The notes: generated by a model from the sequence alone, not told the origin. A stretch of DNA of 20,968 nt from Abditibacteriaceae bacterium (GCA_031372065.1 JANMKN010000318.1:1-20968); one strand, 5' to 3'; positions 1-20,252 are shown, counted from the first letter of the stretch. A program made the numbers and translations.

Positions 1-1077
1 GCCGTCGGATGGGCCGCCGAGCAGAATTTCGCCGCCGCTTTCTCGCATTTGAGCGGCGCACCACGCGGCTTGCCGCGCATCGAAAAGCGCGCCGATGGAA
101 ACACCATTTTGCAGAGGATTTCCTGTTGTGAGCGCCGCTAATTTTTCTTTTAGGTGGTCGCGCACCTTTTCATAAATCGCCGGATGAACCAGCGCGCCGT
201 TGATGGAAGTGCAAGTTTGACCGTTATAACGCGTGGCGCCCTCGGCCAAAACTTGCGCGGCAGTTTCGGCGTTTTGATTTTCATCCACAAACGTCCACAC
301 ATTGCCCGCTCCATCAGCAATCGCGCTTTTTCCGGCTTCAAAAGTTTGCTTTAATATGTCCGGCGCGTGGCCGCTGCTGCCCATATAATGCAGCAAAAGG
401 GGAGTTTCTGATTCGCACAGCGCCGATACGAATTCTTTCGATTTGCAAAGCACCATGCTAATCGCATTCAGCGGCACATCGGCAATTTTCAAGGCGTGCG
501 CCAATAGCAAAGTCGAGCGAGCCGATTGCAAAGGCGCCCGCAAAACCACACGATTGCCGGTTGCCAAAGCATTAAAAATCGCCGTCAGACCGACTAATAA
601 AAACGCGTTTTGCGGCAGAATAATGGCAATCGTGCCCCACGGCACGCGCACCAAATTGATGCCTCGTTTTTGATTGTTCGCTTCGTAAAAAATCGGCGCA
701 TTTTGCGGGTTTTGCAGGCGCTTAAATTCCGCGCAAAATTGTTGGATGTAAGCGAGGCTGTCTTTGAGCAACTCTTCGCAATCGCGCGCGATAAAACCCG
801 TTTCGCGCTGCATCGCATCCCGCAAAGGTTCGCGCAATCCATGCAAGGCATTGTGCAAGCGCGACGCGAAGTTTTCGACTTCGCCGAAGGTTATTTTGAG
901 TGGTGTTTGCGGTGCAAATAACGCTTGCAATTCTTCATCAGAAAGCAGCTGCGCGCTTTGGATAAGGGAGCCATCGCACGGCGAAATTTGCTGGATCATT
1001 TCGCCGCTGCCGGAAAAATCGCCCCACAGCAGGTTTCCGCTGCGCCAAGGCGCGCCCAAGGAAGGAATTGAATTCAT
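1..1077 (-). CDS. Aldehyde dehydrogenase superfamily protein, divergent (3' end outside window)
   Basis: Missing from the ORF track because its stop is outside the window. Manual translation from ATG 1077 is open to base 1: MNSIPSLGAPW...VRVPWGTIAIILPQNAF...ALATGNRVVLRAP...HYMGSS...ADGAGNVWTFVD...RYNGQTCTSING...IGALFD. These match the ALDH motifs PxGVxxxIxPWN, GNxVVxKP, FTGS, ELGG and GQxC. The start overlaps the EamA stop (TAATG). Confidence 0.88.
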   Translation of the reverse strand, partial: MNSIPSLGAPWRSGNLLWGDFSGSGEMIQQISPCDGSLIQSAQLLSDEELQALFAPQTPLKITFGEVENFASRLHNALHGLREPLRDAMQRETGFIARDCEELLKDSLAYIQQFCAEFKRLQNPQNAPIFYEANNQKRGINLVRVPWGTIAIILPQNAFLLVGLTAIFNALATGNRVVLRAPLQSARSTLLLAHALKIADVPLNAISMVLCKSKEFVSALCESETPLLLHYMGSSGHAPDILKQTFEAGKSAIADGAGNVWTFVDENQNAETAAQVLAEGATRYNGQTCTSINGALVHPAIYEKVRDHLKEKLAALTTGNPLQNGVSIGALFDARQAAWCAAQMRESGGEILLGGPSDG

Positions 1078-2012
1078 TACTTGAAAAAGGAGGAGAAAAG
1101 ATTTTCAGGAAGACTAACCAGCAGCACGCCGAATAGGATAATAGCTATGCCAAGCCATTGAATTTTCGCCAATCGCTCTTTTAACAAGACCCAAGCCAAT
1201 AAAATGGTGACCACACTAAAAAGCGACGCCAGCGAGGTGACAACTGTGGTGAAGCCCAAACGATCACCATTAATAAAAGCCATCCACGATAAGCAATCCA
1301 CCACAGAAATGCTGCCGGCGAGGGCAAGAATGTTTTTCCACGAAAGGGCCGGGGGCGCACTTTCGGTAGCAACAGCTTCTATAGAGGACGAACGTGAATT
1401 AAGAGAAGCAGCCAAGCCCGCCACGGACAGCATGGTTGCCATGATTTTTAAACCGATCAGTGGCACAACAGGCCCCAGATGAACATCCAAAGGCTCCATC
1501 ATCCAAAACATAACGCCAAAACCGACCGCACAACCGAGGGCTTCGGGCACGCCGCGTAAGCCTTTGTTTGATTCATCTTCGTGGGCACTGGCGCGCGTGG
1601 CTAACACCACTCCAACAAAAAGCAGTGCGGCCCCAACCAGAATATAGGCCGGTAATTTTTCGCGCGTGCCCAGCGATAATAAAGCCGTTACAACAGCAAA
1701 GCTGGAGGCCAAAGGCGATACCAAAGCCAAGGTGCCAATTTCGAAAGCGCGATACGAAAGCACCAAACCTATGACATGACATAGTCCGGCGCCAATCAAC
1801 CAAAACCAAACTGGCACGCTGCCTTCATACTCCTGTAAGCCACTCCATTTGGCGACATTGAGTAGCGGCAATAAAATTATCCACGCCAACAAACTGGCCG
1901 ACTGCGCATAAACCATAGCCCGCATGGTGCCGACACCACGCGCCAGACACGTCACTAAATAATCACCAACACCCCATCCCAGCGCGGCCAAAAGGCCGAA
2001 GATAATTCCCAT
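1077..2012 (-). CDS. EamA/DMT family transporter
   Basis: 311 aa, about 10 hydrophobic helices in two repeated halves; typical segments LAALGWG, YRAFEIGTLALVSPL, TILLAWVLLKERL and QWLGIAIILFGVLLV. Confidence 0.92.
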   Translation of the reverse strand: MGIIFGLLAALGWGVGDYLVTCLARGVGTMRAMVYAQSASLLAWIILLPLLNVAKWSGLQEYEGSVPVWFWLIGAGLCHVIGLVLSYRAFEIGTLALVSPLASSFAVVTALLSLGTREKLPAYILVGAALLFVGVVLATRASAHEDESNKGLRGVPEALGCAVGFGVMFWMMEPLDVHLGPVVPLIGLKIMATMLSVAGLAASLNSRSSSIEAVATESAPPALSWKNILALAGSISVVDCLSWMAFINGDRLGFTTVVTSLASLFSVVTILLAWVLLKERLAKIQWLGIAIILFGVLLVSLPENLFSSFFK

Positions 2013-2018
2013 GACATG

Positions 2019-2060
2019 AAAACAAAAAAGGAGCGCGAAAAATGCGCCCCTTTTTGTTTT
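2019..2060 (-). terminator. Intrinsic terminator-like hairpin between methyltransferase B and the EamA gene
   Basis: Minus strand reads AAAAAGGGGCGC-ATTTTTC-GCGCTCC-TTTTTTGTTTT directly after the TAA at 2059-2061: a GC stem with one G-U pair followed by a U tract. Confidence 0.7.
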
Positions 2061-2862
2061 AGCTTGTGCTTTCTTTTTTTACGGCCCGGCCAAACATGAT
2101 GCTGCTGAATCCCTGCTCCGAATTATCAGGCACCTGCCGTGAGCGCACATCAATGTTGACGAACCCATTGCGGCGCAGCCAAGCCAGCAAATCTTCGGCG
2201 TTGACTCCGGCGCCGGGATAGCATCGTTCGCCAACACAATAATAATGATGGCCTTCGCAAGCCGCGAGAATCAAAGTGCCGCCCGGCTTGACCATGCTGG
2301 CGATGTTTTGCATATAAACATCCCATGTTTGCTTGCTGTCAGTAGAAGAATCGGCACAGCAATAAGAAACCACAAGGGGATAAAACTCGCGTTTTTCCGG
2401 CCCCAGTGGATTGCTTTGGGTCACATCACCCGGCCAAATGCCTTTGATGCGTTCGCGGGACAGTTGCTCACGTTCACGAGCTTCTTCATCCGTTGGATTG
2501 GCATTGCCTTCCAACTTCAACATATCTTTGGTGAAAATCAGCCAATCGTGGGCATCAGCATCGTTACTTAGCCATTTTTCGACTTCGGCACGGTTAGCCG
2601 GAAGAAATTCGGCCATGTGGACAGTTTTGGCTTTCAACACCATCGGCATACTGAAAAGCATGACGGGGCCAGTGCCAAATTCCAGAGCGACATCCACAGG
2701 CTCCACTTTCTGCATGGATTCGACGACCCATTCAACGGCATAATGCCCATCGAGCGTGATGTCGGCATAATATTCGTTGATGTAATCCTTGGAATTCCAA
2801 TCACTCCATTCGGCGTATTCAACAGCTTTTTCAACAGTTTGCACGGTTTCGTTTTGCGACAC
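2059..2862 (-). CDS. NNMT/PNMT/TEMT family SAM-dependent methyltransferase (paralog B)
   Basis: Start reassigned to GTG 2862, which has an AAGGAG RBS 6 nt upstream; 267 aa. Motifs YINEYY, LEFGTGP, AEFLPANRAEVEKWL..HDW, YCCADSS, VKPGGTLIL and YYCVGERCY parallel NNMT/PNMT motifs. Confidence 0.85.
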   Translation of the reverse strand: MSQNETVQTVEKAVEYAEWSDWNSKDYINEYYADITLDGHYAVEWVVESMQKVEPVDVALEFGTGPVMLFSMPMVLKAKTVHMAEFLPANRAEVEKWLSNDADAHDWLIFTKDMLKLEGNANPTDEEAREREQLSRERIKGIWPGDVTQSNPLGPEKREFYPLVVSYCCADSSTDSKQTWDVYMQNIASMVKPGGTLILAACEGHHYYCVGERCYPGAGVNAEDLLAWLRRNGFVNIDVRSRQVPDNSEQGFSSIMFGRAVKKESTS

Positions 2863-2885
2863 AGTTTTCTCCTTGTCGGGCCGAA

Positions 2886-3746
2886 TTAGGCCGAAGTTTT
2901 TACGCCGCAAGCAAAAATGACGCTGCCATATCCTTGTTCCGAATGATCGGGCACAAGGCGCACGCGCAAATCTATATTGCCGAAGCCATCTTCCTGCAAG
3001 GCTTGCAATACATCTTGCGCCGTTACGCCCGCACAAGGAAAAAGGCGCTCACCGACGCAGTAAAAGTTAGCGGCACCGCAAGCCGACAAAATCAAAGTGC
3101 CGCCCGGCGCCACCAACCCTGCGATGTTGCTCATATAACGCCGCCACGTTTTCTTGTCGTTGGTAGCGCCTTCGGCACAATAATGCGAAGTCACAAGAGG
3201 ATACGACGCGCGCTTTTCGAGGCCCAGCGGATTTTCATCGCCGGCATCGCCGGGCAGAACTGCGGTTACGCGTTCGCGCACTTGCTGCTCACGGGCACGC
3301 GCCTGAACGTCCAGAGTTTCGGGAGAAGTTCCCTCGGCTGAAACTTCTTCCAAGCGAAGAGTTTCGCGTGAAAACGGCAGCCAATCGTGTGTGGCTTGGC
3401 CGCGTAGCCAGCGTTCGACTTCCTCGCGGTTTGATTCCAAGTATTCCGCCAGATGAAGCTCCTGCACTTTAGGCAACAAAGGAAATAAATGATGCACTGT
3501 CGGGCCACAACCAAAATCAAGGGCCAATGACACGCTGCCAACTTTGCGCATGGATTCTACCAGAAATTCCATGGCATATCGTTCGTCTGCCATGACTTCT
3601 TCGTAGTATTCGGCCAGATAATTAGCTGGCTGCCACTCGCTCCAAGCCGCGTAAACAATTTCGGCAGATTCTGTGGCACCACTTTTTGAAGAATCCAGAC
3701 TTTTTCCTGCATTATCTGGAGTCTGAGTGGCTAAAATTGTTGACAT
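2886..3746 (-). CDS. NNMT/PNMT/TEMT family SAM-dependent methyltransferase (paralog A)
   Basis: Start reassigned to ATG 3746 (AGGGGG RBS); 286 aa. Motifs YLAEYY, LDFGCGPT, AEYLESNREEVERWL..HDW, HYCAEGA, LVAPGGTLIL and FYCVGERLF. Confidence 0.87.
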   Translation of the reverse strand: MSTILATQTPDNAGKSLDSSKSGATESAEIVYAAWSEWQPANYLAEYYEEVMADERYAMEFLVESMRKVGSVSLALDFGCGPTVHHLFPLLPKVQELHLAEYLESNREEVERWLRGQATHDWLPFSRETLRLEEVSAEGTSPETLDVQARAREQQVRERVTAVLPGDAGDENPLGLEKRASYPLVTSHYCAEGATNDKKTWRRYMSNIAGLVAPGGTLILSACGAANFYCVGERLFPCAGVTAQDVLQALQEDGFGNIDLRVRLVPDHSEQGYGSVIFACGVKTSA

Positions 3747-3822
3747 TCGGAAATCCCCCTGTTTCGAAAAATCACGGATATTTGCGCGCAAATGCTCACA
3801 AAATTGTATCCTTAATGCTTAG

Positions 3823-3861
3823 ATTATAGCCTTTTGCTCACTTGTGTTGCATCAGGCTATA
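3823..3861 (-). promoter_or_regulatory. Candidate -10 box for the methyltransferase operon, overlapped by an inverted repeat
   Basis: Perfect TATAAT on the minus strand at 3823-3828 with no good -35. TATAGCC (3825-3831) and GGCTATA (3855-3861) form an inverted repeat overlapping it. Confidence 0.35.
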
Positions 3862-4076
3862 GCGAACTGGGGGAATGAATTGTCTTTCTTCTTGGGTGTC
3901 TGGCATTACACTGCGTTACATCATGTTGTTGTCGTAGCAACAGCAAACCGAGACAGGAAACCCCGCCAAGATTTAATGGGCCTCTCCCAAATCATGCTAT
4001 TGCCCAATCGTCGCGTTAGTTGTTTCGTTTGTGAGTCTGTCTGACGCAGACAAGGCTCTTGTAACAAAGCCAATCA

Positions 4077-7000
4077 ATGCTCCTAACAGCGCGCCAAACA
4101 CGCACTAAGAACTATCTGCTACTCGCCACAGGCATTTATGCAGTAGTTTTTGTGGCAGTGCTGATAGCGCATCCTGGCGGGCCACTCTTCGATTTTTTGT
4201 TTGGCCTGTTTCGCCATCATTCTCCAACGCCCACCGATTTGGAAAATGCAGGCAAAATTTACAAGGATTTTGAAAATATTTATCAAATTCTGCCGCCTTT
4301 ATTCGCGGCGTGTTGCGCGATATTTTATGCCTTGCGTGGCTTTCATCTCCTCCCGAACCGCCGTGTCGGTTGGTTTTTGATTGGCATAGGCTGCTTTTTA
4401 TGGAGCATTGGACAAAGCACTTGGACTTACTATGAAACGCTACGCGGCGTGGATGTGCCATTTCCCGGTGGGGCCGATGTTGGTTATCTGGGCGGTTATC
4501 CATTCATCATTGTTGGCGTAGCTTTGCTGTTTGACAAAATGCCATTGTCGGGGCGCATTCGCCTCTTATTAGATAGCGCTTTAGCAGCCAGCAGTGTGGG
4601 CGTGGTAAGTTGGTATTTTCTTGTCAACAAGCTGTGGAGCGATGCGGGAGCCGACCTGCTTACGCGTCTGCTCACGGTAGCCTACCCACTCTCCGATATT
4701 ATCGTGCTGTTTTTTGCGTTGGTCTTGCTCAGTGGCGCATGGGATAACAAAGAAAGGCGCCTTTCTTTGGTTTGTTTGGCCGCAGGCATGATTTTGTTAG
4801 CCTGTGCCGATAGCCTTTTTAGCTATTACAACCTCATAGGTCTGTATCAGACGGGAAGTTGGTTCGATTGGTGTTTTGCTTTTGGCTGGCTCCTTATAGG
4901 ATATGCTTCGCTAATCCGTTTATGGCAGCGCCAAACAACAGAAACCGCCAATGCAGATGCTCCCCGATCATTTGCCGGGCAAGAATTGTTAGAATCGCGT
5001 CCATTTTGGCAATCGGTGACACTTGGTTTGTTAGCCCGTCTTTTAGCGCCTTACATTGCTGCATTTGGCGCCTTATCGTTGCTGACGTATACAGACTATA
5101 CCACGCCTAAAGCCTTAAATTTTCATTACCTGAGTAATACGGTCATCATGCTGGGGTTATGGTTGATTAATCTTGTTATTTTGCGTCAGGTTTTTACGTT
5201 ATTGGAAAACCAAAACCTCACACAACAATTAAGAGCTTTCAACACCACTTTGGAACAGAAGGTGGTTCAACGCACAGATCAAATCAATTCGCTTTTGCAA
5301 CTGGCTAAGGCTGTCAACAATACACGCGATTTCGATTTGGTCGTCAATGCGGCAGGCCAGCATACGTTACACGTTTTACAAGCCGATGCCGTCATCTTGT
5401 GGTCATCGGGGGGCGATGTGCCAGAAATGTCGCTGCCACCGCGAGTTTTTCCGGAAAATGTGCGTCAGGAATATCCGGGACTGATTAAATTCCTCACGGC
5501 CCACGACATGGTATCTGAAACGGCCATCGTTTCTTTGCAGGAAATTGCTGCCCAACATCCATCGCTCAAAGCAAAAGTGGCGCGCGGTGTTGTGGCTCCT
5601 CAAATCGGCGCCATTTCTACAGAGCTTGCATCCGAAAAATCGCTGGCGAATTTAAAGGGCCAATGTCTGATTGCCCCTTTGTTTTGGCAAGGCAAGGCCA
5701 TCGGCATGATCGCGGCGACCTCGTGGAACGAACCCTTCGAAGACGACGAAACAGCCATGCTGGAAAGCATTGGCGTTGAAGTTGGCACCGCCATGGAAAA
5801 TGCGCGGCTCTATGGCGCCGCCTTGAAAGCGGCTGACCGCGATTCCGTCACGGGACTGCTGAACCATCGTGCTGTCCATCAGCGCCTTGATGACGAATTT
5901 CAGCGCGCCCAGCATCAGGATCGTCCTTTGTCCGTCATTATGATGGATTTGAACAATTTCAAATTATTCAATGACACCTATGGGCATCCTGTGGGCGATC
6001 AGGTCTTGAAACGTGTCGCCCGCGCCTTGGAATCGGAATGCCGCAAGCCGGGCATTTTGGCGCGTTATGGTGGCGACGAATTCATCGCGGTCTTGCCCGA
6101 CACCGATGAACCCAAAGCGATGGTGCTGGCCCAGCGTTTGAGCGAGCGAATGAACCGCGAGGGATTTCAAGGTAGCAGCGATTCAACCACGGTGCCGATC
6201 TCACTTTCCTTTGGCGTGGCGAGTTATCCCGAAGATTGCACCAATCGTTTTGAATTGGTCACCATCGCTGACCGCAATTTGTATCAGGCGAAAGTCTCCG
6301 ACAGTGGCATCATGGGCACCACGGAATCTCAACGCACGCACCGTGCCCTGCGTAGCGAAGGTTCCTTTGATGTATTAGATGCCATGGTCACCGCCGTTGA
6401 TAACAAAGACCGTTATACGCGCCGGCATTCGGAGGATGTCACCGAATATGCGTTGTGGATCGCGGAAGAACTGGGTTACTCCGAAGGCACTCAACGCGTT
6501 ATTCGCATCGGCGGGCTTTTGCATGATGTTGGCAAAATTGGCGTGCCCGAAGATATTCTGCGCAAGCCCGGCAAACTCAGCAACGAAGAATACGAAACCA
6601 TGAAGCGGCACACCCAATTAGGCGCTTTGATTGTGGGCGGCGTATCCGGCATGGAATCTATTATTGACATCGTGAAATCGCATCACGAACGATGGGATGG
6701 CAAAGGTTACCCCGATGGTCTGGCAGGCGAAGACATTCCCTTGCTGGGCCGCTTGTTAGCGGTTGCCGATGCCCTAAGTGCCATGACAACAGATCGCCCC
6801 TATCGCAGAGGTTTTCCGTGGGAAAAAGCGGTGGAGGAGATTCGCAAAGGCATAGAAACTCAATTTGACCCCGAAATGGCAAAAGCCTTTTTAGCAGTAG
6901 CGGCCAAAGGTCGTCCAGGTTCCTCACATCATCAGCATTCTCCAATGGATAGTGACCGTTTCGCAGAGGAAAGTTTTTATGCGAGTGCGGCGCCCACCGA

Positions 7001-7121
7001 TGCCGTGGAGCCAAATGGCCCATCTGCGACATCTCAGAGTTTGGGCACTCAAAAGAGTTTAGGCACTCAGAACGACGAAGAGCAGGATTATCCAAATCCA
7101 AAACACTCTGCTTTGCCTTGA
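4077..7121 (+). CDS. Multi-pass membrane sensor / GAF / GGDEF / HD-GYP c-di-GMP turnover protein
   Basis: About 9 N-terminal TM segments including PFPGGADVGYLGGYP, a coiled linker, a GAF-like region ending AMENARLY, DSVTGLLNHR...FKLFNDTYGHPVGD...RYGGDEF, then RHSEDV...LLHDVGKIG...HHERWDGKGYP...RPYR. Confidence 0.93.
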   Translation: MLLTARQTRTKNYLLLATGIYAVVFVAVLIAHPGGPLFDFLFGLFRHHSPTPTDLENAGKIYKDFENIYQILPPLFAACCAIFYALRGFHLLPNRRVGWFLIGIGCFLWSIGQSTWTYYETLRGVDVPFPGGADVGYLGGYPFIIVGVALLFDKMPLSGRIRLLLDSALAASSVGVVSWYFLVNKLWSDAGADLLTRLLTVAYPLSDIIVLFFALVLLSGAWDNKERRLSLVCLAAGMILLACADSLFSYYNLIGLYQTGSWFDWCFAFGWLLIGYASLIRLWQRQTTETANADAPRSFAGQELLESRPFWQSVTLGLLARLLAPYIAAFGALSLLTYTDYTTPKALNFHYLSNTVIMLGLWLINLVILRQVFTLLENQNLTQQLRAFNTTLEQKVVQRTDQINSLLQLAKAVNNTRDFDLVVNAAGQHTLHVLQADAVILWSSGGDVPEMSLPPRVFPENVRQEYPGLIKFLTAHDMVSETAIVSLQEIAAQHPSLKAKVARGVVAPQIGAISTELASEKSLANLKGQCLIAPLFWQGKAIGMIAATSWNEPFEDDETAMLESIGVEVGTAMENARLYGAALKAADRDSVTGLLNHRAVHQRLDDEFQRAQHQDRPLSVIMMDLNNFKLFNDTYGHPVGDQVLKRVARALESECRKPGILARYGGDEFIAVLPDTDEPKAMVLAQRLSERMNREGFQGSSDSTTVPISLSFGVASYPEDCTNRFELVTIADRNLYQAKVSDSGIMGTTESQRTHRALRSEGSFDVLDAMVTAVDNKDRYTRRHSEDVTEYALWIAEELGYSEGTQRVIRIGGLLHDVGKIGVPEDILRKPGKLSNEEYETMKRHTQLGALIVGGVSGMESIIDIVKSHHERWDGKGYPDGLAGEDIPLLGRLLAVADALSAMTTDRPYRRGFPWEKAVEEIRKGIETQFDPEMAKAFLAVAAKGRPGSSHHQHSPMDSDRFAEESFYASAAPTDAVEPNGPSATSQSLGTQKSLGTQNDEEQDYPNPKHSALP
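7036..7071 (+). repeat. 18-bp tandem duplication in the C-terminal tail
   Basis: AGAGTTTGGGCACTCAAA / AGAGTTTAGGCACTCAGA (16/18 identical), encoding QSLGTQ-KSLGTQ. Confidence 0.8.
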
Positions 7122-7275
7122 GTTTCTTACAAAAAACACAAAAAGAAGGTTTTTGCGCATTCATAAGTTACTCTGATAAGTCAATTATCACTAAAAACTT
7201 CTCACTTTTAGATAAGATATTTTTCGAGCCAATTTCTTGATCTGGAACTTGATTTGAAAAAGGAGAGCTTGCCAC

Positions 7276-8748
7276 ATGATCACAGCTTCAAACTACTCAG
7301 ACCTTCTGACACAATTTTCTGACAAGCATTTGGTGACTCTCTCCACGGGTGCGACTTGCGCTTATTTGGGTGATGAACGCAATTTGCGAGAATTTTTAGT
7401 TGCGGACGAAGCCGCGCGGTGGCTGCGTCGCGCCGGACATACAGTTGTATTTTTTCTTATAGACGACAGTCTTGACCCCTTGAATTTTCGCCAATTGCGT
7501 GTGGCCGTCAACAAGAACGAAGAGTTGATCGAAAAATTTCAGCATTGGTGTGGCAAGCCTATCGCTCATCTGCCCGATCCGTGGGGCTGCCACGAATCGT
7601 ATGCGGCGCATTTTGAAGAAGAACTGGTTGACCGCCTGCATCGCCTTGATTGTCACCCGACTTTAGTTACCACAGCGCAGCTTTATGAGCGCGGTGTTTA
7701 CAAGCCTTATGTCACGCTTGTGCTGGAACGTTATGACGAAATCATGGCGTTTTTTGCCGAGCGTTTTCCCGCCTATAAACCGGACAAACTGTTCTGGCCC
7801 ATTTGCCCCCATTGCCGTTATATTCATGAAACGCGCGTGGAAGCTATTGTCAATCAATCCATCGAGATTTGCTGCGACCATTGCAATAAACGCTCAATTG
7901 TGCCGATTGAGGAAGTCGAAGGCAAATTGAACTGGAAATTAGATTGTGCGGTGCGCTGGACGGTGTTCAATATTGATTGTGAACCGTTCAATAAAAAGTA
8001 TCTCGAACCCCAAACCGGCACCGTGCCGATTGCACAAGCCGTTTGCGCCGAGTTTTTCAATGGCCCCGATGTCGTTCCGCTGCTTTACGGCACTGTGGAA
8101 ATGAAAAAAGAGTTGTCTTACAAATTGCTGGATTCGCTGCCCACCACGGTTTTGCGTAGTATGATGACCGAGCGTCCGGCCACAGACATTAATTTATCGC
8201 AGGAAAAAATCATGACCGCTGTTTCACGTTTCGGCGTGTTACCCGGCCTCAGTTATCTGGATTTCATCAAACAGCTTTTGCCAATGTGGCTTTTGACGCC
8301 CGAAAAGCTGACGCAATCGCAGCGTGATTTAGTGGCGAATGGCATCGCCTTTAGCCAAAACTTTTTGGATGCCAATATTTGTTTGCAAATGCCGACCAGA
8401 GCGCATTTTCAAGATCAAACGGTGCCTGTTATTCGCGAAGTGCGCAATTTGCTGCGCGAAGTGATTCGCTTGCGACAAGAAGAAGACCCGGAATGGGAAG
8501 AATTCCAGGATTTAATCAAGCAAATCATCGCCACGATGGGCACACATAAAGGGCAGGCTTTGCATCGCTTGCGCGTGTTGGTAGGGCAAGAACAGGGAAT
8601 GCCCGCCGGACGTTTTCTTTTTGTGCTGCCACTTGACTATTTAAGTGTGCTGGAATACATATGCGACCTGTTTGTGCAGGCTAACACCGATAGATCAGTC
8701 GAAACTCCGGTTTTTGCCAATGGCGTTCCACTGTCCACAGCGGTGTGA
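7276..8748 (+). CDS. Class I lysyl-tRNA synthetase-like protein (paralog with degenerate ATP-binding motifs)
   Basis: AAGGAG RBS. LysRS-I-like blocks: NLRE, DDSLD, GKPIAHLPDPWGCHESYAAHF, LYERGVY, CPHC/CDHC Zn pairs, GKLNWKLDCAVRW...IDCEP, and C-terminal LVGQEQG. HIGN is replaced by DERN and there is no KMSxS motif. Confidence 0.85.
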   Translation: MITASNYSDLLTQFSDKHLVTLSTGATCAYLGDERNLREFLVADEAARWLRRAGHTVVFFLIDDSLDPLNFRQLRVAVNKNEELIEKFQHWCGKPIAHLPDPWGCHESYAAHFEEELVDRLHRLDCHPTLVTTAQLYERGVYKPYVTLVLERYDEIMAFFAERFPAYKPDKLFWPICPHCRYIHETRVEAIVNQSIEICCDHCNKRSIVPIEEVEGKLNWKLDCAVRWTVFNIDCEPFNKKYLEPQTGTVPIAQAVCAEFFNGPDVVPLLYGTVEMKKELSYKLLDSLPTTVLRSMMTERPATDINLSQEKIMTAVSRFGVLPGLSYLDFIKQLLPMWLLTPEKLTQSQRDLVANGIAFSQNFLDANICLQMPTRAHFQDQTVPVIREVRNLLREVIRLRQEEDPEWEEFQDLIKQIIATMGTHKGQALHRLRVLVGQEQGMPAGRFLFVLPLDYLSVLEYICDLFVQANTDRSVETPVFANGVPLSTAV

Positions 8749-8786
8749 TTTTCGCGGGCATTTTGCGACAAGGCATTTCATCGAAA

Positions 8787-9779
8787 ATGAAACGATTTCT
8801 CAATTACACAGCGTTCTTTTGGGTTGCGAGCGCATTTGCGACGTTTTCGGTTCACGTCCAAGCGCAAAATGCGGTTCAACCAGCACAACCAGCCGCACAA
8901 GAATCAAACCCACCCGGCACGACAACCGAGGAGGAAAAGGCCGAACCGACAGGGATATTCGCCGGGGCTGATTTATATTATGGATTCGGCAATTTGCCCG
9001 GTTTTCGGCATTTTCGCGATGGATTTTGGGCCGCAGGCTCCAGTTTGGCCTACCCGTCACACGTTTATGTGCGCTCTAACACCAAGAGCGGCGCACAAGC
9101 CAAATTAGCGATTTCGCTGGGCGAGATTTACAACGGTTCCACAAGTTTTGACCAGCCTATCGAAGCCTGGTGGAAGCAACCACTCAAAAGCAACAACTCG
9201 ACCAAAAGTTCGGTGACATTGGGCAAGTTTTATGTTCCCTTTGCCTTGCAGGAATGGGAATACGAGACCAAATGGGGCGCGCTTTACGAAGGCGAATGGA
9301 ATGCCACCACCCTTGGCGCCGCCATGGTTTACAATCGCAACGTTGATCATGCAAACGGTTATGCTCGCGTGGGACACAATTTCGGAGAACGTCTCAATGT
9401 CGGCATCTCACTGGCCACCGGCAGTGGTTTGATGTATGACACGGTGCATGACAAAGCCATCGGCGTTGATCTGACAGGGTCTGCAGGCGATTGGGAAGTG
9501 TTAGCCGAATATATGGGCGCAAGGGGCACTGCCGCACAGCGTTTTCGTTTTGGTTGGGCACGCTTGAATTACAATAAATGGCAGCGCTTCAAGCCTTTTG
9601 CGGCGCGCTACGATTATAAGGACACCACAGGCGCATTCGGCACCTATCGTTCCTATGTGGCCGGGGCCAGCTACGCGCTACGCCCTGATCTTCAAGTTGA
9701 AGGCGGCTACGCTGTCGCTACGGGTAAAAATATCTGGTTTGCTCAAATTCATTGGACACCAGAACGAAAAGTCAAATAA
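8787..9779 (+). CDS. Secreted outer-membrane beta-barrel (porin-like) protein
   Basis: Signal peptide MKRFLNY...VQA from ATG 8787 (alternative GTG 8745 overlaps the upstream stop). A low-complexity linker is followed by amphipathic Gly/aromatic-rich strands, LGKFYVPF (porin-like) and a terminal strand WFAQIHW. Confidence 0.7.
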   Translation: MKRFLNYTAFFWVASAFATFSVHVQAQNAVQPAQPAAQESNPPGTTTEEEKAEPTGIFAGADLYYGFGNLPGFRHFRDGFWAAGSSLAYPSHVYVRSNTKSGAQAKLAISLGEIYNGSTSFDQPIEAWWKQPLKSNNSTKSSVTLGKFYVPFALQEWEYETKWGALYEGEWNATTLGAAMVYNRNVDHANGYARVGHNFGERLNVGISLATGSGLMYDTVHDKAIGVDLTGSAGDWEVLAEYMGARGTAAQRFRFGWARLNYNKWQRFKPFAARYDYKDTTGAFGTYRSYVAGASYALRPDLQVEGGYAVATGKNIWFAQIHWTPERKVK

Positions 9780-9895
9780 TAATTAAAGCGCCTCGAAATG
9801 GCGCCAAAGCGGTCATAAAGTAAATATTTCACAAAAATACCTACAATCATCAGATTTTTAAGTATGTTTGTAATGCTGTAGTAATGCGCGAGGTG

Positions 9896-9927
9896 TATAT
9901 TAAAAGAGCGTTAGTCCAGACTAACGC
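9896..9927 (+). promoter_or_regulatory. Candidate -10 box plus a 20-bp palindrome with perfect 9-bp arms upstream of the receiver gene
   Basis: TATATT at 9896-9901; GCGTTAGTC-CA-GACTAACGC at 9908-9927. Confidence 0.5.
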
Positions 9928-9949
9928 CAGAACTAAAGAAGGAATAAAC

Positions 9950-10363
9950 ATGAACGAGGAAATTTCGTTCCGCGCGCGGCGTCTGCCAAAAGTGTCTGAC
10001 ACTTATCGCATTTTGATTGTCGAAGACGAAATCGAAGTGTCGCGCCTAATCGGTATGGCATTGGAAAGTCGCGGCTATAAATTCAAGCCGGCTCTTGATG
10101 GCGCGCAGGCATTAGAAGTTTTCAGCGGCTTTGATCCCCATATGGTGCTGCTGGACTTAACGATGCCGGGCATTAGTGGGCAAGAAGTTTACGACGCTAT
10201 TCGCAGCATGAGCGATGTGCCAGTTATGGTGGTGAGCGCTTTAGTCGGCGATAGAGACATTCCGTTACCAGAAGGCGTGGCCGGACAAATGAGCAAGCCC
10301 TTCAGCCCACCCAATCTCGTGCGCCGTGTGCAAGCTGTGTTAGAAGAAACTTACGGGACGTGA
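9950..10363 (+). CDS. Single-domain response regulator receiver (CheY-like)
   Basis: ATG 9950 with AAGGA RBS; RILIVEDE, LLDLTMPG (phospho-Asp), VVSA and SKPF; no output domain. Confidence 0.9.
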   Translation: MNEEISFRARRLPKVSDTYRILIVEDEIEVSRLIGMALESRGYKFKPALDGAQALEVFSGFDPHMVLLDLTMPGISGQEVYDAIRSMSDVPVMVVSALVGDRDIPLPEGVAGQMSKPFSPPNLVRRVQAVLEETYGT

Positions 10364-12426: not shown

Positions 12427-12460
12427 GCTAAGTATTCGGACAGAATTATGTGAGGCTTTG

Positions 12461-12544
12461 CGTCATTCTGAGGGAGCCTAAGCGACTGAAGAATCCCCAT
12501 TAGGCAAGGGGATTCTTCAGTCGCTTAGGCTCCCTCAGAATGAC
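12461..12544. repeat. REP-like perfect inverted repeat (37-bp arms, 9-nt loop)
   Basis: GTCATTCTGAGGGAGCCTAAGCGACTGAAGAATCCCC (12462-12498) and its exact reverse complement (12508-12544); begins with CGTC. Confidence 0.9.
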
Positions 12545-12594
12545 AAACCTTCTTTAATCTAATTGTGTCCACCTACTTATATATAATTAAGTTC

Positions 12595-16857: not shown

Positions 16858-17766
16858 ATGCTCAAAAAGCCTCTCCTTGTTTTTATTATTGTGTTTGCCT
16901 GTAGCACGGCTCACGCCCAAACCGCGCCTCCATTAGTCGTTAACGAGACTCTTATCGCCAAACTGAGTCCCGGTGTGGCTACTGCCATGACAACGCAGTT
17001 CGATTATCTGCCGTGGGGCTATCATGTCGAATGGAGTCCTGACATGAAGCGCGTAGCTTATTGGGCGACGAATGAAAAGGGAATGTATCTCGTTGTCAAC
17101 GGCGTGTCTGACAAGCCTTATGATGTGCAAGAGGATGGCAGTCCGCGCGGCGGCTTAATTCCGCCGCCGGTCGTTTTTTCGCCCGATAGCCAGCATTACG
17201 CTTATGTTGCCCGACGCGACAAAAAGCAGTTCGTCGTGCGCGATGGCAAAGCAGGCGCCGCCTACGATTGGATAGCACCCGACGACCTGCATTTCAGCCC
17301 CGACAGCCAGCGCATGGCGTATTGGGCGCGGCGCGGCAAGAAAAATCTGACAGTTTTGCACGACGGCGACAAAATTAAGGAATTCGGTTTTGTTCCACGC
17401 AAAGCAGACGCACCTCAGAGTTTTTATAACGAAGATGTCTTGGCTTCCCAAAAACCATCATGGAAAGTCATTGAGCGAGACAAAAAGCAAATTATTGTTT
17501 ACAACGGCAAAGAAGGCGTGCCTTATGACTTCATCCACACTCAAACATTGGCGTTCAGCGCCGATGGAAAGCACTCGGCTTGGTGCGCAGAACGGGACGA
17601 AAAACTGTTCATCATCTTCGATGGCGTAGAGGCTGGCAAAACCTATGGAGCAGCAACTGGCTTGCAGCTTCCGCCGCTGGTTTTTGACACGCCGGCCTCG
17701 TTTCATACTTTAGCTTTGCGCGCAGATAAGATATTTCGCGTCGAAGTCAATTGGTCGGAAGAGTAA
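16858..17766 (+). CDS. Secreted protein with TolB/PD40-like beta-propeller repeats
   Basis: Signal peptide ending TAHA-Q; repeats WSPDMKRVAY, FSPDSQHYAY, FSPDSQRMAY and FSADGKHSAW, each followed by a hydrophobic strand and a (D/N)G turn. Confidence 0.82.
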   Translation: MLKKPLLVFIIVFACSTAHAQTAPPLVVNETLIAKLSPGVATAMTTQFDYLPWGYHVEWSPDMKRVAYWATNEKGMYLVVNGVSDKPYDVQEDGSPRGGLIPPPVVFSPDSQHYAYVARRDKKQFVVRDGKAGAAYDWIAPDDLHFSPDSQRMAYWARRGKKNLTVLHDGDKIKEFGFVPRKADAPQSFYNEDVLASQKPSWKVIERDKKQIIVYNGKEGVPYDFIHTQTLAFSADGKHSAWCAERDEKLFIIFDGVEAGKTYGAATGLQLPPLVFDTPASFHTLALRADKIFRVEVNWSEE

Positions 17767-18446: not shown

Positions 18447-20252
18447 TCATAAGCCTGCTTTTTTAAGCTCGTCCTGCAAAGCGCGCAGTGTTTTATGTTC
18501 GACGCGCAAAGCGGCTATCAATTCGTGCCACTTGTTGAGATTATCTTGTTTTTTATGAATATCGCGGACGCACCTCAGAATTTTGGCGGCTTCCTGATAA
18601 GCGCCGCGATGGCGCTGGGTAATGTGGTAATGCGCCAGCAAAGTCCACTGTTCCAGAGCGAAATCGGGATGCGTTTTTTCCGCCGCCAAAGCCAATTTCG
18701 CGCGACGTTCATCTTGCTCTCGCGCTTTCAATTGCGGCCACAGATGCAAGGCTAACTCTACTTTGCCTTCGTGCAAAGCAAGATCGCAAAGCACAGCGGT
18801 GCGCCCTTCAGATTCTAATTTTTGCAGCATATCTTGCCGCACTGCATCGCGTTGTTGGTTTTGCTCGGCGAGCGCCAATAAATCGTCCCACACACTCGTT
18901 TGCGGCGCGGCTAAAAACAATTGACGATGCCATTTGATCGCTTCTTCAAGAGGCCCATCGGCTTTGGTGCGCTCGGCCAGCCAACCAAGATAATAAGCCG
19001 GATGCTGCTCGTTGGGCCGCAAGCGTTCGGCGACATAATTCAAGGCGGCGCGGCGGTGGCCCGCTTCATAAAGTTGATTGGCGAAATTCATCACCAAACC
19101 CGGCCCATTGACGAATTGATTTTTCGCCACATTTAGCGCCTTGTCTATTTCGCCCAATTCCAGCAAGGCCGTGGCGCGTTGCGGTGGAGAACCTTCGTTC
19201 CGCAACAACTGCTGGGCTTCGTTGGCTCGGCCTGTGCGACGCAATCGTTCGGCCAGAAAATTCATCACCGTTTCGTAATTGGAATCCGAGGTGTAATCAA
19301 TCACGAAATCTTCATCATCGCCGCTCGTTCCCTGCCAGACTTTGTAGCGCGGCTTTGACACGTCGCCAAGTCGCGCGCGCAAACGCGCCTCGATGATCGC
19401 CCATTCACCGTCATCGCACGAAAGCAAAGCGTCGTCGGCAGACGCCCCAAAACCAATGCCGCCGAAATTCAAATCGGCCACCCACGCCTCCAATAAAAGA
19501 TGTAGCCAACGTTCTCGCGCTTCGGGCGAAGAACCATCCAAACAGCGCCCGATGCCCGCTGCGCAATCGTCGGCGAGGCCGCTCAATTCGCCCTCCTGAT
19601 CCCATTCCATCAGTTCCGGCGTTTCGGCCACTAATTCTTGCAACACAACAGCGAATAGTTCGCCCGCTTGCTGAGGCGTTTGAGTTTGCAATGCGGCGGC
19701 CTGACGCGTAAAAAACTCCAAGTCGTGGCGCGCTTCGCGGAAATTGGCGTCCCACTCGGCGCGTTTAAGACGCTTCATTACGTCTTTAATCTTCTTGCGC
19801 GCTTCGTCAACGCTGCTTGCTGTGGTGCCGCTGATTTGGCGCTTCACGACATTGCGCAATTTCGGCTCGATTTCCACTAATTGCAGGATAAGTTGCGCCA
19901 ATTCATCGTGCGGGCATTCTAAAAGTTGCGGTAATAATTCGGATTCGCTTTGAAAAATTTCCGGCGTGTTAACCCATGTTAGCAGGAGCGCCACCAAATG
20001 CTTGCACGGCCCGCCGTATTCGTAGGGACAAGTGCAATGCAGCGCGCCGACGTTTTGCACAGTCAATCTGACACTAAGGCGATACGGCTCCATATCGCTG
20101 CCTTCGCAAAGCGCGCGTAATTCATCGCCAACGCGCACGGTTTCGCTCAGTGCGCCATCTCCAAAAATCTTCTGGCCGCGCGCAAAAACTTTCGGCGCGC
20201 ATAATTCGGCGATGTCGCCTTCGTCAAATCGAGGTTCTATGGGGTGTTTCAT
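18447..20252 (-). CDS. SWIM zinc finger family protein with helical C-terminal region
   Basis: N-terminal FARG...V.GS-like segment (CEGS..PY), CTCPYEYGGPCKHLVALLL (CxC...CxH), a long helical body, and C-terminal YQEAAKIL...HKTLRALQDEL. Confidence 0.9.
   Translation of the reverse strand: MKHPIEPRFDEGDIAELCAPKVFARGQKIFGDGALSETVRVGDELRALCEGSDMEPYRLSVRLTVQNVGALHCTCPYEYGGPCKHLVALLLTWVNTPEIFQSESELLPQLLECPHDELAQLILQLVEIEPKLRNVVKRQISGTTASSVDEARKKIKDVMKRLKRAEWDANFREARHDLEFFTRQAAALQTQTPQQAGELFAVVLQELVAETPELMEWDQEGELSGLADDCAAGIGRCLDGSSPEARERWLHLLLEAWVADLNFGGIGFGASADDALLSCDDGEWAIIEARLRARLGDVSKPRYKVWQGTSGDDEDFVIDYTSDSNYETVMNFLAERLRRTGRANEAQQLLRNEGSPPQRATALLELGEIDKALNVAKNQFVNGPGLVMNFANQLYEAGHRRAALNYVAERLRPNEQHPAYYLGWLAERTKADGPLEEAIKWHRQLFLAAPQTSVWDDLLALAEQNQQRDAVRQDMLQKLESEGRTAVLCDLALHEGKVELALHLWPQLKAREQDERRAKLALAAEKTHPDFALEQWTLLAHYHITQRHRGAYQEAAKILRCVRDIHKKQDNLNKWHELIAALRVEHKTLRALQDELKKAGL

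Follow-up and report, generated by a model that had tools for sequence, protein, structure and literature searches.

Paralogs of aminoacyl-tRNA synthetases with tasks outside translation are few, and HisZ, GCN2, MshC and the cyclodipeptide synthases (CDPSs) each opened new biochemistry. HisZ regulates HisG, and a HisRS-like domain regulates GCN2; the CDPSs, which lack both HIGH and KMSKS, use aminoacyl-tRNA; and one route of haem synthesis runs from GluRS via Glu-tRNA to glutamyl-tRNA reductase (GluTR, HemA). Here we describe a locus of an Abditibacteriaceae bacterium from soil (GCA_031372065.1 JANMKN010000318.1:1-20968, in our index G000:C6:1-20968), in which a paralog of class I lysyl-tRNA synthetase (LysRS1), hereafter the LysRS-like protein, is encoded together with an aldehyde dehydrogenase (ALDH) and a membrane-bound enzyme of cyclic di-GMP (c-di-GMP) turnover, the sensor. 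The whole stretch of 20,968 nucleotides is referred to as the window; with base 1 it starts at the end of a contig. The core of a conserved cassette is formed by the LysRS-like protein, the ALDH and the sensor, whereas an EamA carrier, a porin and methyltransferases are accessories. As a tentative reading, which we hold at somewhat less than even odds, the cassette makes, exports and senses a lysine-derived small molecule.

Compared with class I LysRS from Pyrococcus horikoshii (1IRX), the LysRS-like protein is alike in its full-length fold, four Zn cysteines, PDPWGCHESY block and GKLxW motif. It differs in reading DERN for HIGN, in a deleted KMSKS loop, in a family score below the cut-off and in its constant ALDH partner. 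The CDPSs, MshC and BshC provide precedents for class I enzymes whose Rossmann catalytic fold serves chemistry outside translation; unlike them, the LysRS-like protein has retained the entire LysRS architecture, C-terminal domains and all, and no sequence kinship extends beyond the fold. HisZ and GCN2 are similar as catalytically disarmed synthetase copies in a regulatory setting, but they are relatives of class II HisRS and are not known to have a dedicated ALDH, carrier or porin. The GluRS/HemA route would offer a parallel if an ALDH-type enzyme were to reduce, via its Cys nucleophile, a tRNA-bound lysyl ester to an amino aldehyde; GluTR, however, does not belong to the ALDH family, and GluRS keeps its ATP motifs.

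On the signalling side, polyamine sensing by NspS-MbaA sets c-di-GMP in Vibrio cholerae (PMC8967002). The likeness would lie in a membrane c-di-GMP enzyme, with synthesis and breakdown domains, that responds to a small amine present outside the cytoplasm, whereas MbaA is a GGDEF-EAL protein working with a periplasmic binding protein, and the system is not known to include a synthetase paralog or an ALDH. A survey of synthetase paralogs counted one class I LysRS paralog, and the present protein is not described in the sections of that survey used here (PMC5388404). In our literature search, which had subscription journals outside its scope, no published description of a motif-less LysRS1 paralog or of the cassette was found, nor of any non-translational paralog derived from class I LysRS. 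The search thus bears out the initial annotation of this DNA, made by a model from the sequence alone, which knew of no described system of such composition.

Gene order and co-occurrence in Armatimonadota

The initial annotation placed two divergent gene arms around an intergenic region of about 330 bp, and ORF calls and Pfam searches recovered eight ORFs with their domains in this arrangement. All eight are long ORFs with strong family matches, so that chance is excluded. The features of the locus are as follows.

1–1077, minus strand: ALDH, N-terminal 359 aa (PF00171, E 4e-43, and a weak LuxC match); the C-terminal ~115–120 aa lie beyond the contig end
1077–2012, minus strand: EamA/DMT-family membrane carrier (PF00892, E 3.9e-16, in two stretches; ~10 hydrophobic segments)
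2025–2055, minus strand: terminator-like hairpin between the MT1 stop and the EamA start (12-bp stem with 6 GC pairs, then a T run)
2059–2862, minus strand: N-methyltransferase MT1, NNMT/PNMT/TEMT family (PF01234, E 1.2e-30; NF041360, 81.5 bits)
2886–3746, minus strand: N-methyltransferase MT2, NNMT/PNMT/TEMT family (PF01234, E 1.2e-34; NF041360, 115.3 bits)
3747–4076, no strand: divergent intergenic (promoter) region of 330 bp, the gap between MT2 and the sensor gene
4077–7121, plus strand: membrane c-di-GMP enzyme (sensor), 1014 aa, with multiple transmembrane (TM) segments, GAF, GGDEF and HD-GYP (Pfam matches and motifs)
7276–8748, plus strand: class I LysRS paralog (LysRS-like protein), 490 aa (PF01921, E 7.7e-45)
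8745–9779, likely start ATG 8787, plus strand: outer-membrane porin-like barrel of 16 strands (structure model; without a Pfam match)
9884–10363, plus strand: single-domain receiver (PF00072, E 2e-17)

The arrangement was compared over 20 loci anchored on the LysRS-like gene, namely the window and 19 loci from one-genome-per-species contigs, with names such as Abditibacteriaceae, Abditibacterium, Chthonomonadales and Fimbriimonas and covering several families. An ALDH gene lies beside the LysRS-like gene in 16/20 loci and a sensor gene, intact or contig-cut, in 17/20, with a remnant in one more (L046). A porin gene adjoins it in 13 of the 20, an EamA gene is found on either arm in 12 and a methyltransferase gene lies nearby in nine. 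Three of the four loci without an adjacent ALDH gene are cut by contig ends. The fourth, in genome G017, has its ALDH on another contig, where ALDH-EamA faces a split sensor gene, while the LysRS-like and porin genes lie on a separate contig. The G017 sensor (L139:5960-8723, G017:C2) is broken into four ORF pieces, corresponding to the TM domain, a middle piece, a GGDEF fragment and an HD fragment, which reflects either decay of the cassette or an assembly error. The same two explanations apply to genome G002, in which the ALDH, MT1 and sensor genes are in split (frameshifted) pieces and the LysRS-like gene contains one in-frame TGA. At L055, ALDH-MT faces the LysRS-like gene and the sensor gene is located elsewhere in the genome.

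Co-occurrence was followed by profile searches across 301 genomes of the phylum. The LysRS-like profile matched 20/301 genomes at E ≤ 1e-163, and one further genome at 3e-31, the latter match being probably a true LysRS1. The ALDH profile matched 19 genomes at E ≤ 1e-80, all of them within the same 20; the missing genome was G002, with its broken copy. The sensor membrane domain was found in 43 genomes at E ≤ 1e-20. At E ≤ 1e-100 it was confined to 19 of the same 20 and occurred in no other genome (the G010 copy is contig-cut, and the best match outside the set was 3.7e-70). With broken and cut copies included, the LysRS-like gene and the ALDH and sensor orthologs thus share one set of 20 genomes and are missing from the remaining 281. 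The carriers are spread over at least five families (11/26 genomes in the family of the window, then 4/31, 1/17, 1/15 and others), a scatter which implies that the set was gained or lost as a whole several times.

Synteny and co-occurrence in relatives, the check proposed in the initial annotation, therefore gave a positive result, the arms being adjacent in most of the 20 loci, across several Armatimonadota families, and co-occurring in the same 20 of 301 genomes. Independent occurrence of the two arms, which had been named as grounds for abandoning the link, was not observed. The view that they are neighbours by chance and share no function can appeal to the general caution that adjacency alone is not function; it is refuted by the synteny across families and across the three deep clades described below, together with the strict genome co-occurrence, and we consider it next to untenable. 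Taken together, the results give strong support to a functional link between the arms.

The LysRS-like protein, its ALDH partner and the methyltransferases

The LysRS-like protein scored 128.9 bits against TIGR00467, below the curated cut-off of 147.55, and matched the 1IRX sequence at E 1.3e-25. It is not the LysRS of the cell, since a canonical class II LysRS is encoded elsewhere in the genome (contig C227, 629.7 bits). In an alignment with true LysRS1, the signature TPSGxxHxGNxRE reads TCAYLGDERNLRE, HIGN having become DERN; the HIGH signature (HxGN in LysRS1) is thus lost in the window, with GDER conserved throughout the clade. Likewise, every clade member in the alignment lacks the KMSKS loop (MSSSxG in LysRS1) owing to a deletion of 11 residues. 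The residues G25, T27, R38 and E39 have been retained. Among 32 aligned sequences, true LysRS1 included, the Zn cysteines C177, C180 and C200 are invariant and C203 nearly so; W220, E236 and G248 are also invariant, and D64, D67 and G93 are kept. Of the six residues that we take to form the lysine pocket of 1IRX (G27, T29, E41, W218, H240 and Y268), five are identical in the LysRS-like protein (G25, T27, E39, W220 and Y271), and H240 is replaced by Tyr, with His in some members.

The predicted structure (pLDDT 93.5) could be superimposed on 1IRX over 439 residues (Z 31.7, rmsd 4.7; model residues 5–465), C-terminal domains included. The model thus contains the Rossmann core, the Zn-binding insertion and the C-terminal domains of the LysRS1 fold, and the tRNA-side domains appear to be retained; the next structural matches were BshC (4wbd, Z 19.3), followed by CysRS and MshC at Z of about 16. 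Judging from its motifs, the protein is hardly capable of ATP-dependent amino-acid activation and looks suited to holding lysine, a lysyl group or tRNA. It may still bind lysine or the lysyl group. Two further ideas were discarded. A catalytic Cys at position 28 was rejected on finding C, S or T in that column across the clade, and the isoelectric point, considered as a hint of tRNA binding, was non-discriminating, with values of 5.2–9.6 for the LysRS-like proteins and a similar range for true LysRS1.

At three loci of the same type as the window (type A, see below), the LysRS-like gene is followed on its own strand, no more than ~1.5 kb downstream, by a tRNA-Lys gene (L049:12929-13001, L053:12727-12800 and L115:8221-8292). 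The anticodon is CTT in one case and TTT in two; a scan of 56 loci detected seven tRNA genes in all, these three among them. This placement could reflect either a functional link or an island border, tRNA genes often bordering islands.

The ALDH partner is catalytically equipped in an unusual manner. The catalytic Cys (Cys302) is kept in 33/33 family members and the oxyanion Asn (Asn169) in 27/33, the window included, both as in hydrolytic ALDHs. Conversely, the position of the general base Glu268 is occupied by Asp in all 33, the Asp of the window protein aligning to the Glu of LELGGK in 9ihb, and the general-base Glu of hydrolytic ALDHs is accordingly absent. A Glu-to-Asp change cripples standard ALDHs, and reductive members of the ALDH superfamily are not known to need a general-base Glu. 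The nearest solved relatives, at only ~120 bits, are vanillin, benzaldehyde, succinate-semialdehyde and non-phosphorylating GAP dehydrogenases. An aldo-keto reductase gene adjoins the ALDH gene in two type A loci (G005 and L103) and recurs in type C cassettes (see below), which fits aldehyde chemistry. Two partner ALDHs (P0258 and P0266) are found under the names of the cultured strains Abditibacterium utsteinense and Capsulimonas corticalis (CCAX7_39530), under which the ALDH alone was seen.

In the window the ALDH gene runs off the contig, the source assembly (6.1 Mb, 410 contigs) being 93.9% complete, and its missing C-terminal end was not found on any other contig of the assembly. The EamA stop overlaps the ALDH start by one base, and the two genes appear to be translationally coupled. 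In relatives the left arm closes with an ALDH of 473–489 aa, and the gene that follows varies, encoding an aldo-keto reductase, a porin, a small GGDEF protein or, in the opposite orientation, a P450. Core biosynthetic genes hidden beyond base 1, which the initial annotation had thought possible, are therefore not expected.

MT1, for which the true start is a GTG preceded by an AAGGAG Shine-Dalgarno sequence, is 48% identical to MT2. Both exceed the cut-off of 60 of the GntF equivalog model NF041360 (81.5 and 115.3 bits) and share with GntF, the N-methyltransferase of guanitoxin synthesis, the NNMT/PNMT/TEMT fold family. They would differ from it in context: in the scan of 13 window proteins, no further family of the guanitoxin pathway gave a score, and none was annotated in the related loci, which were scanned against Pfam only. 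The name GntF would be an over-annotation here. Methyltransferase genes are absent from 11 of the 20 loci, including two genomes of the same genus. Among 61 relatives they occur in seven, all of them cassette carriers and in 7/7 beside the cassette, with a second, unlinked copy in G023. NNMT-type methyltransferases are also present in the type C loci L105 and L127. The pair in the window may be a separately terminated insertion, with the hairpin at 2025–2055 at its end and the pair absent from same-genus relatives.

These observations bear on a version of the circuit close to the initial annotation, in which a methylated amine signal is made at its core by MT1 and MT2, with further biosynthetic genes beyond base 1. 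The scores of both enzymes above the GntF cut-off and their restriction, among the 61 relatives, to genomes and positions with the cassette would agree with such a role; their absence from more than half of the loci, and an arm that ends at the ALDH with differing next genes, do not, and we regard it as very improbable. The two enzymes more plausibly N-methylate the product as an optional tailoring step.

Sister cassettes, the membrane sensor and the barrel

A profile search of 1.84 billion representative sequences returned 844 LysRS-like matches at E ≤ 1e-3, 74 of them at E ≤ 1e-30, which grade from the cassette clade via a second motif-less clade to true LysRS1. The members of a second class I LysRS-like clade (P0037, P0038, P0043, P0047, P0051, P0056 and P0057; 465–507 aa) are also without the KMSKS loop, and their HIGH site reads GITTAY..(D/N)NQLREF. 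A metagenome scan gave 75 loci, 62 of which have a LysRS-like ORF. An ALDH lies beside it in 39/62 and signalling proteins in 44/62, neighbours being assigned by clustering and many of the contigs being short. Three cassette types were distinguished (variable members in parentheses).

Type A (window): ALDH, (EamA), (MT), facing TM-GAF-GGDEF-HD-GYP, LysRS-like protein, (porin or EamA)
Type B: secreted barrel-like protein, LysRS-like protein, orphan SBP_bac_3 binding protein, ALDH, HAMP histidine kinase, REC-GAF-GGDEF-EAL, REC-GGDEF-PilZ
Type C: LysRS-like protein, (aldo-keto reductase), ALDH, EamA, stand-alone 8-TM protein, 92-aa protein, histidine kinase, receiver

The three types form three clades with 100% support in a quick FastTree tree of 56 LysRS-like sequences without outgroup. 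A similarly quick tree of 33 ALDH sequences, also without outgroup, groups them alike, with support of 99 for type A and 100 for type C. The membrane domain of the window sensor has a homologue in the stand-alone TM protein of type C (hhalign probability 98%, E 2.5e-13, 171 columns). In type B, the SBP_bac_3 protein lies between the two enzymes, and its nearest solved relatives bind Gln, Arg or Lys/Arg/Orn, which fits an amino-acid-like periplasmic ligand. No ABC permease or ATPase is encoded beside it, and no energised importer occurs in the cassettes. The constant part is thus the pairing of LysRS-like protein and Asp-type ALDH, accompanied by a sensor system, and this system, whether a membrane domain of one family or a binding protein with a kinase, faces the periplasm.

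The recurrence of signalling genes invites another explanation, namely that the LysRS-like protein is a pseudo-enzyme which senses free lysine or uncharged tRNA(Lys) in the cytoplasm and, much like HisZ or the HisRS-like domain of GCN2, directly modulates the GGDEF/HD-GYP enzyme, the ALDH, EamA carrier and porin serving a side function. The protein has lost the ATP motifs while retaining the fold, the Zn site and a putative amino-acid pocket, its gene shares an operon with signalling genes in each of the three cassette types, and both the sensor and the type C kinases possess a cytoplasmic GAF domain. Such a role would, however, leave unexplained why a catalytically equipped ALDH, with its Cys kept in 33/33, follows the same genome distribution and clade structure, and why EamA, porin, methyltransferase and aldo-keto reductase genes recur. 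At L055, moreover, the LysRS-like gene has stayed beside the ALDH gene though the sensor gene is elsewhere. We judge this explanation to be unlikely, while giving it more weight than any of the other alternatives considered here.

The sensor itself has ~8–10 hydrophobic segments within residues 1–376, followed by RYGGDEF at residue 665, HDVGK at 816 and HHERWDGKGYP with GYP at 877. The intact GGDEF and HD-GYP motifs reported in the initial annotation were thus read again in the window, and GGDEF, HDxGK and HHExxDGxGYP are kept in 24/24 orthologs. The protein carries both the GG[DE]EF active-site motif of a diguanylate cyclase (PF00990) and the HD metal site and GYP motif of an HD-GYP c-di-GMP phosphodiesterase (PF13487), activities that are predicted from these motifs. 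The I-site RxxD is present in 13/24 orthologs and absent from the window sensor. The multi-TM and GAF part of the enzyme would be the receptor.

The barrel protein has no Pfam match; the Atlas lists porin families for it at 0.96. An N-terminal hydrophobic leader is readable in its sequence, and the AlphaFold model (pLDDT 74.9) shows ~16 strands. The best Foldseek matches of this model were the general porins OmpM1 (8bys, E 2e-9, TM 0.56), OmpU and Omp38 (E 2e-9 to 1e-8, TM ~0.55), in agreement with the beta-barrel that the initial annotation saw in the right arm. With its signal peptide and barrel, the secreted protein is, on the strength of the model, a predicted porin of the general 16-strand kind. 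Its family is wider than the cassette, close copies being found in the non-carriers G018 and G022 and distant ones in other families. In G054 (L137:4769-8127) a porin stands with a TM-histidine kinase and a receiver, and in G040 (L138:3950-7607) a porin faces TM-GAF-GGDEF-HD-GYP, the membrane domain being of the same family in both. Both sites are without a LysRS-like protein or ALDH, and for this reason the porin/sensor pair has the look of an older module that acquired the two enzymes afterwards.

The stand-alone porin and sensor also lend themselves to an explanation by uptake, in which the cassette imports an external amine or aldehyde through the porin and EamA and detoxifies or catabolises it with the ALDH, sometimes assisted by the aldo-keto reductase or the methyltransferases, and reports the event through c-di-GMP. 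That the porin and the same type of sensor occur by themselves in genomes without the enzymes is consistent with this, as are the typically detoxifying nature of ALDH and aldo-keto reductase and the periplasmic binding protein of type B. Uptake would nevertheless have to proceed without an energised importer, and without an ABC permease or ATPase next to the binding protein; the catabolic steps are too few, and the strictly co-occurring LysRS-like protein is left without a role. We find it distinctly unlikely, more so than direct sensing by the LysRS-like protein.

The receiver at the end of the right arm has a readable Asp pocket, phospho-acceptor Asp and Lys. It follows the porin in only two of the 20 loci, those of the window and of G002, which belong to the same genus. 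It is probably an unrelated neighbour outside the conserved unit, and was therefore removed from the circuit in which the initial annotation had included it.

Other features of the window concern its non-coding parts and flanks. A short TATA-like block in the 330-bp region is common to the window and three genomes of the same genus. No riboswitch or T-box was matched by Rfam in the window. The sole Rfam matches there were miRNA models, below their thresholds, and were rejected as false positives on a long hairpin at 12457–12547 between an SHMT gene and a DUF6985 gene; this hairpin is probably a terminator or a palindromic element. A 601-aa protein adjoining purK (18447–20252, minus strand) has only a SWIM zinc finger, and a 302-aa ORF (16858–17766, plus strand) has only a faint TmcD-like match.

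A proposed role for the cassette and its implications

A module that makes, exports and senses a small molecule linked to c-di-GMP, as proposed in the initial annotation, is still the best reading of the locus: the sister cassettes again pair the two enzymes with an EamA carrier, an outer-membrane barrel and a sensor. The roles within it have to be reassigned. The LysRS-like protein and the ALDH, formerly placed on opposite sides of the circuit, are together the likely maker. In the scheme that we tentatively prefer, this pair would make or convert a lysine-derived small molecule, its role being that of a synthase and not one in sensing or catabolism; the presence of an ALDH, and of an aldo-keto reductase that recurs beside it, suggests aldehyde chemistry. 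The methyltransferases would tailor the amino groups of the product in some lineages, the EamA carrier and the porin would let it cross the envelope, presumably outward, and the membrane GGDEF/HD-GYP enzyme would read it and set c-di-GMP.

A more specific and bolder version of this scheme can be drawn from the retained tRNA-side architecture, the Asp-for-Glu change and the tRNA-Lys gene downstream in 3/56 loci. Here the ATP-blind LysRS copy would capture Lys-tRNA from the normal synthetase and hand the lysyl group to the ALDH, which would reduce it in the manner of GluTR to a lysine aldehyde-derived amine. N-methylated in some lineages and exported by EamA, this amine would be read by the GGDEF/HD-GYP enzyme, the whole amounting to a tRNA-fed autoinducer pathway with control over c-di-GMP. 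We put it forward as speculative, with odds well on the side of its being wrong.

Several points weigh against a make-export-sense role. With only two core enzymes, a full pathway cannot be written, and the proposed product, activity and binding are drawn from gene content and conservation, the list of 1IRX pocket residues being an assumption of ours. The SBP_bac_3 protein of type B suggests a ligand with an intact alpha-amino-acid head, which fits a lysine derivative, but an amino aldehyde less well. EamA carriers can import as well as export, and the sensor may read an external cue that the cell does not make, the porin and sensor type standing alone in G054 and G040. The LysRS-like gene is without an intact adjacent sensor in three loci (L044, L046 and L055). 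The genomes are kin, so that the co-occurrence counts are not independent events. Finally, fused LysRS-like/ALDH or LysRS-like/GGDEF forms were found neither among the longer ALDH or longer LysRS-like proteins nor near the ALDH profile, which is weak evidence; the 120 of 188 profile matches that were listed are 405–582 aa long and have ALDH-type domains only (PF00171 with or without PF05893).

The locus thus presents a synthetase paralog that is firmly coupled to an unusual ALDH and to signalling by second messengers or two-component systems, in three deep lineages, among them the barely studied Abditibacteria. If the whole cassette is present in the cultured strains A. utsteinense and C. corticalis, these would make the idea directly testable. 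Should a signal indeed be made from lysine or lysyl-tRNA, the enzyme pair would represent a previously undescribed class of bacterial signal synthase, and c-di-GMP control would gain an input of a new kind.

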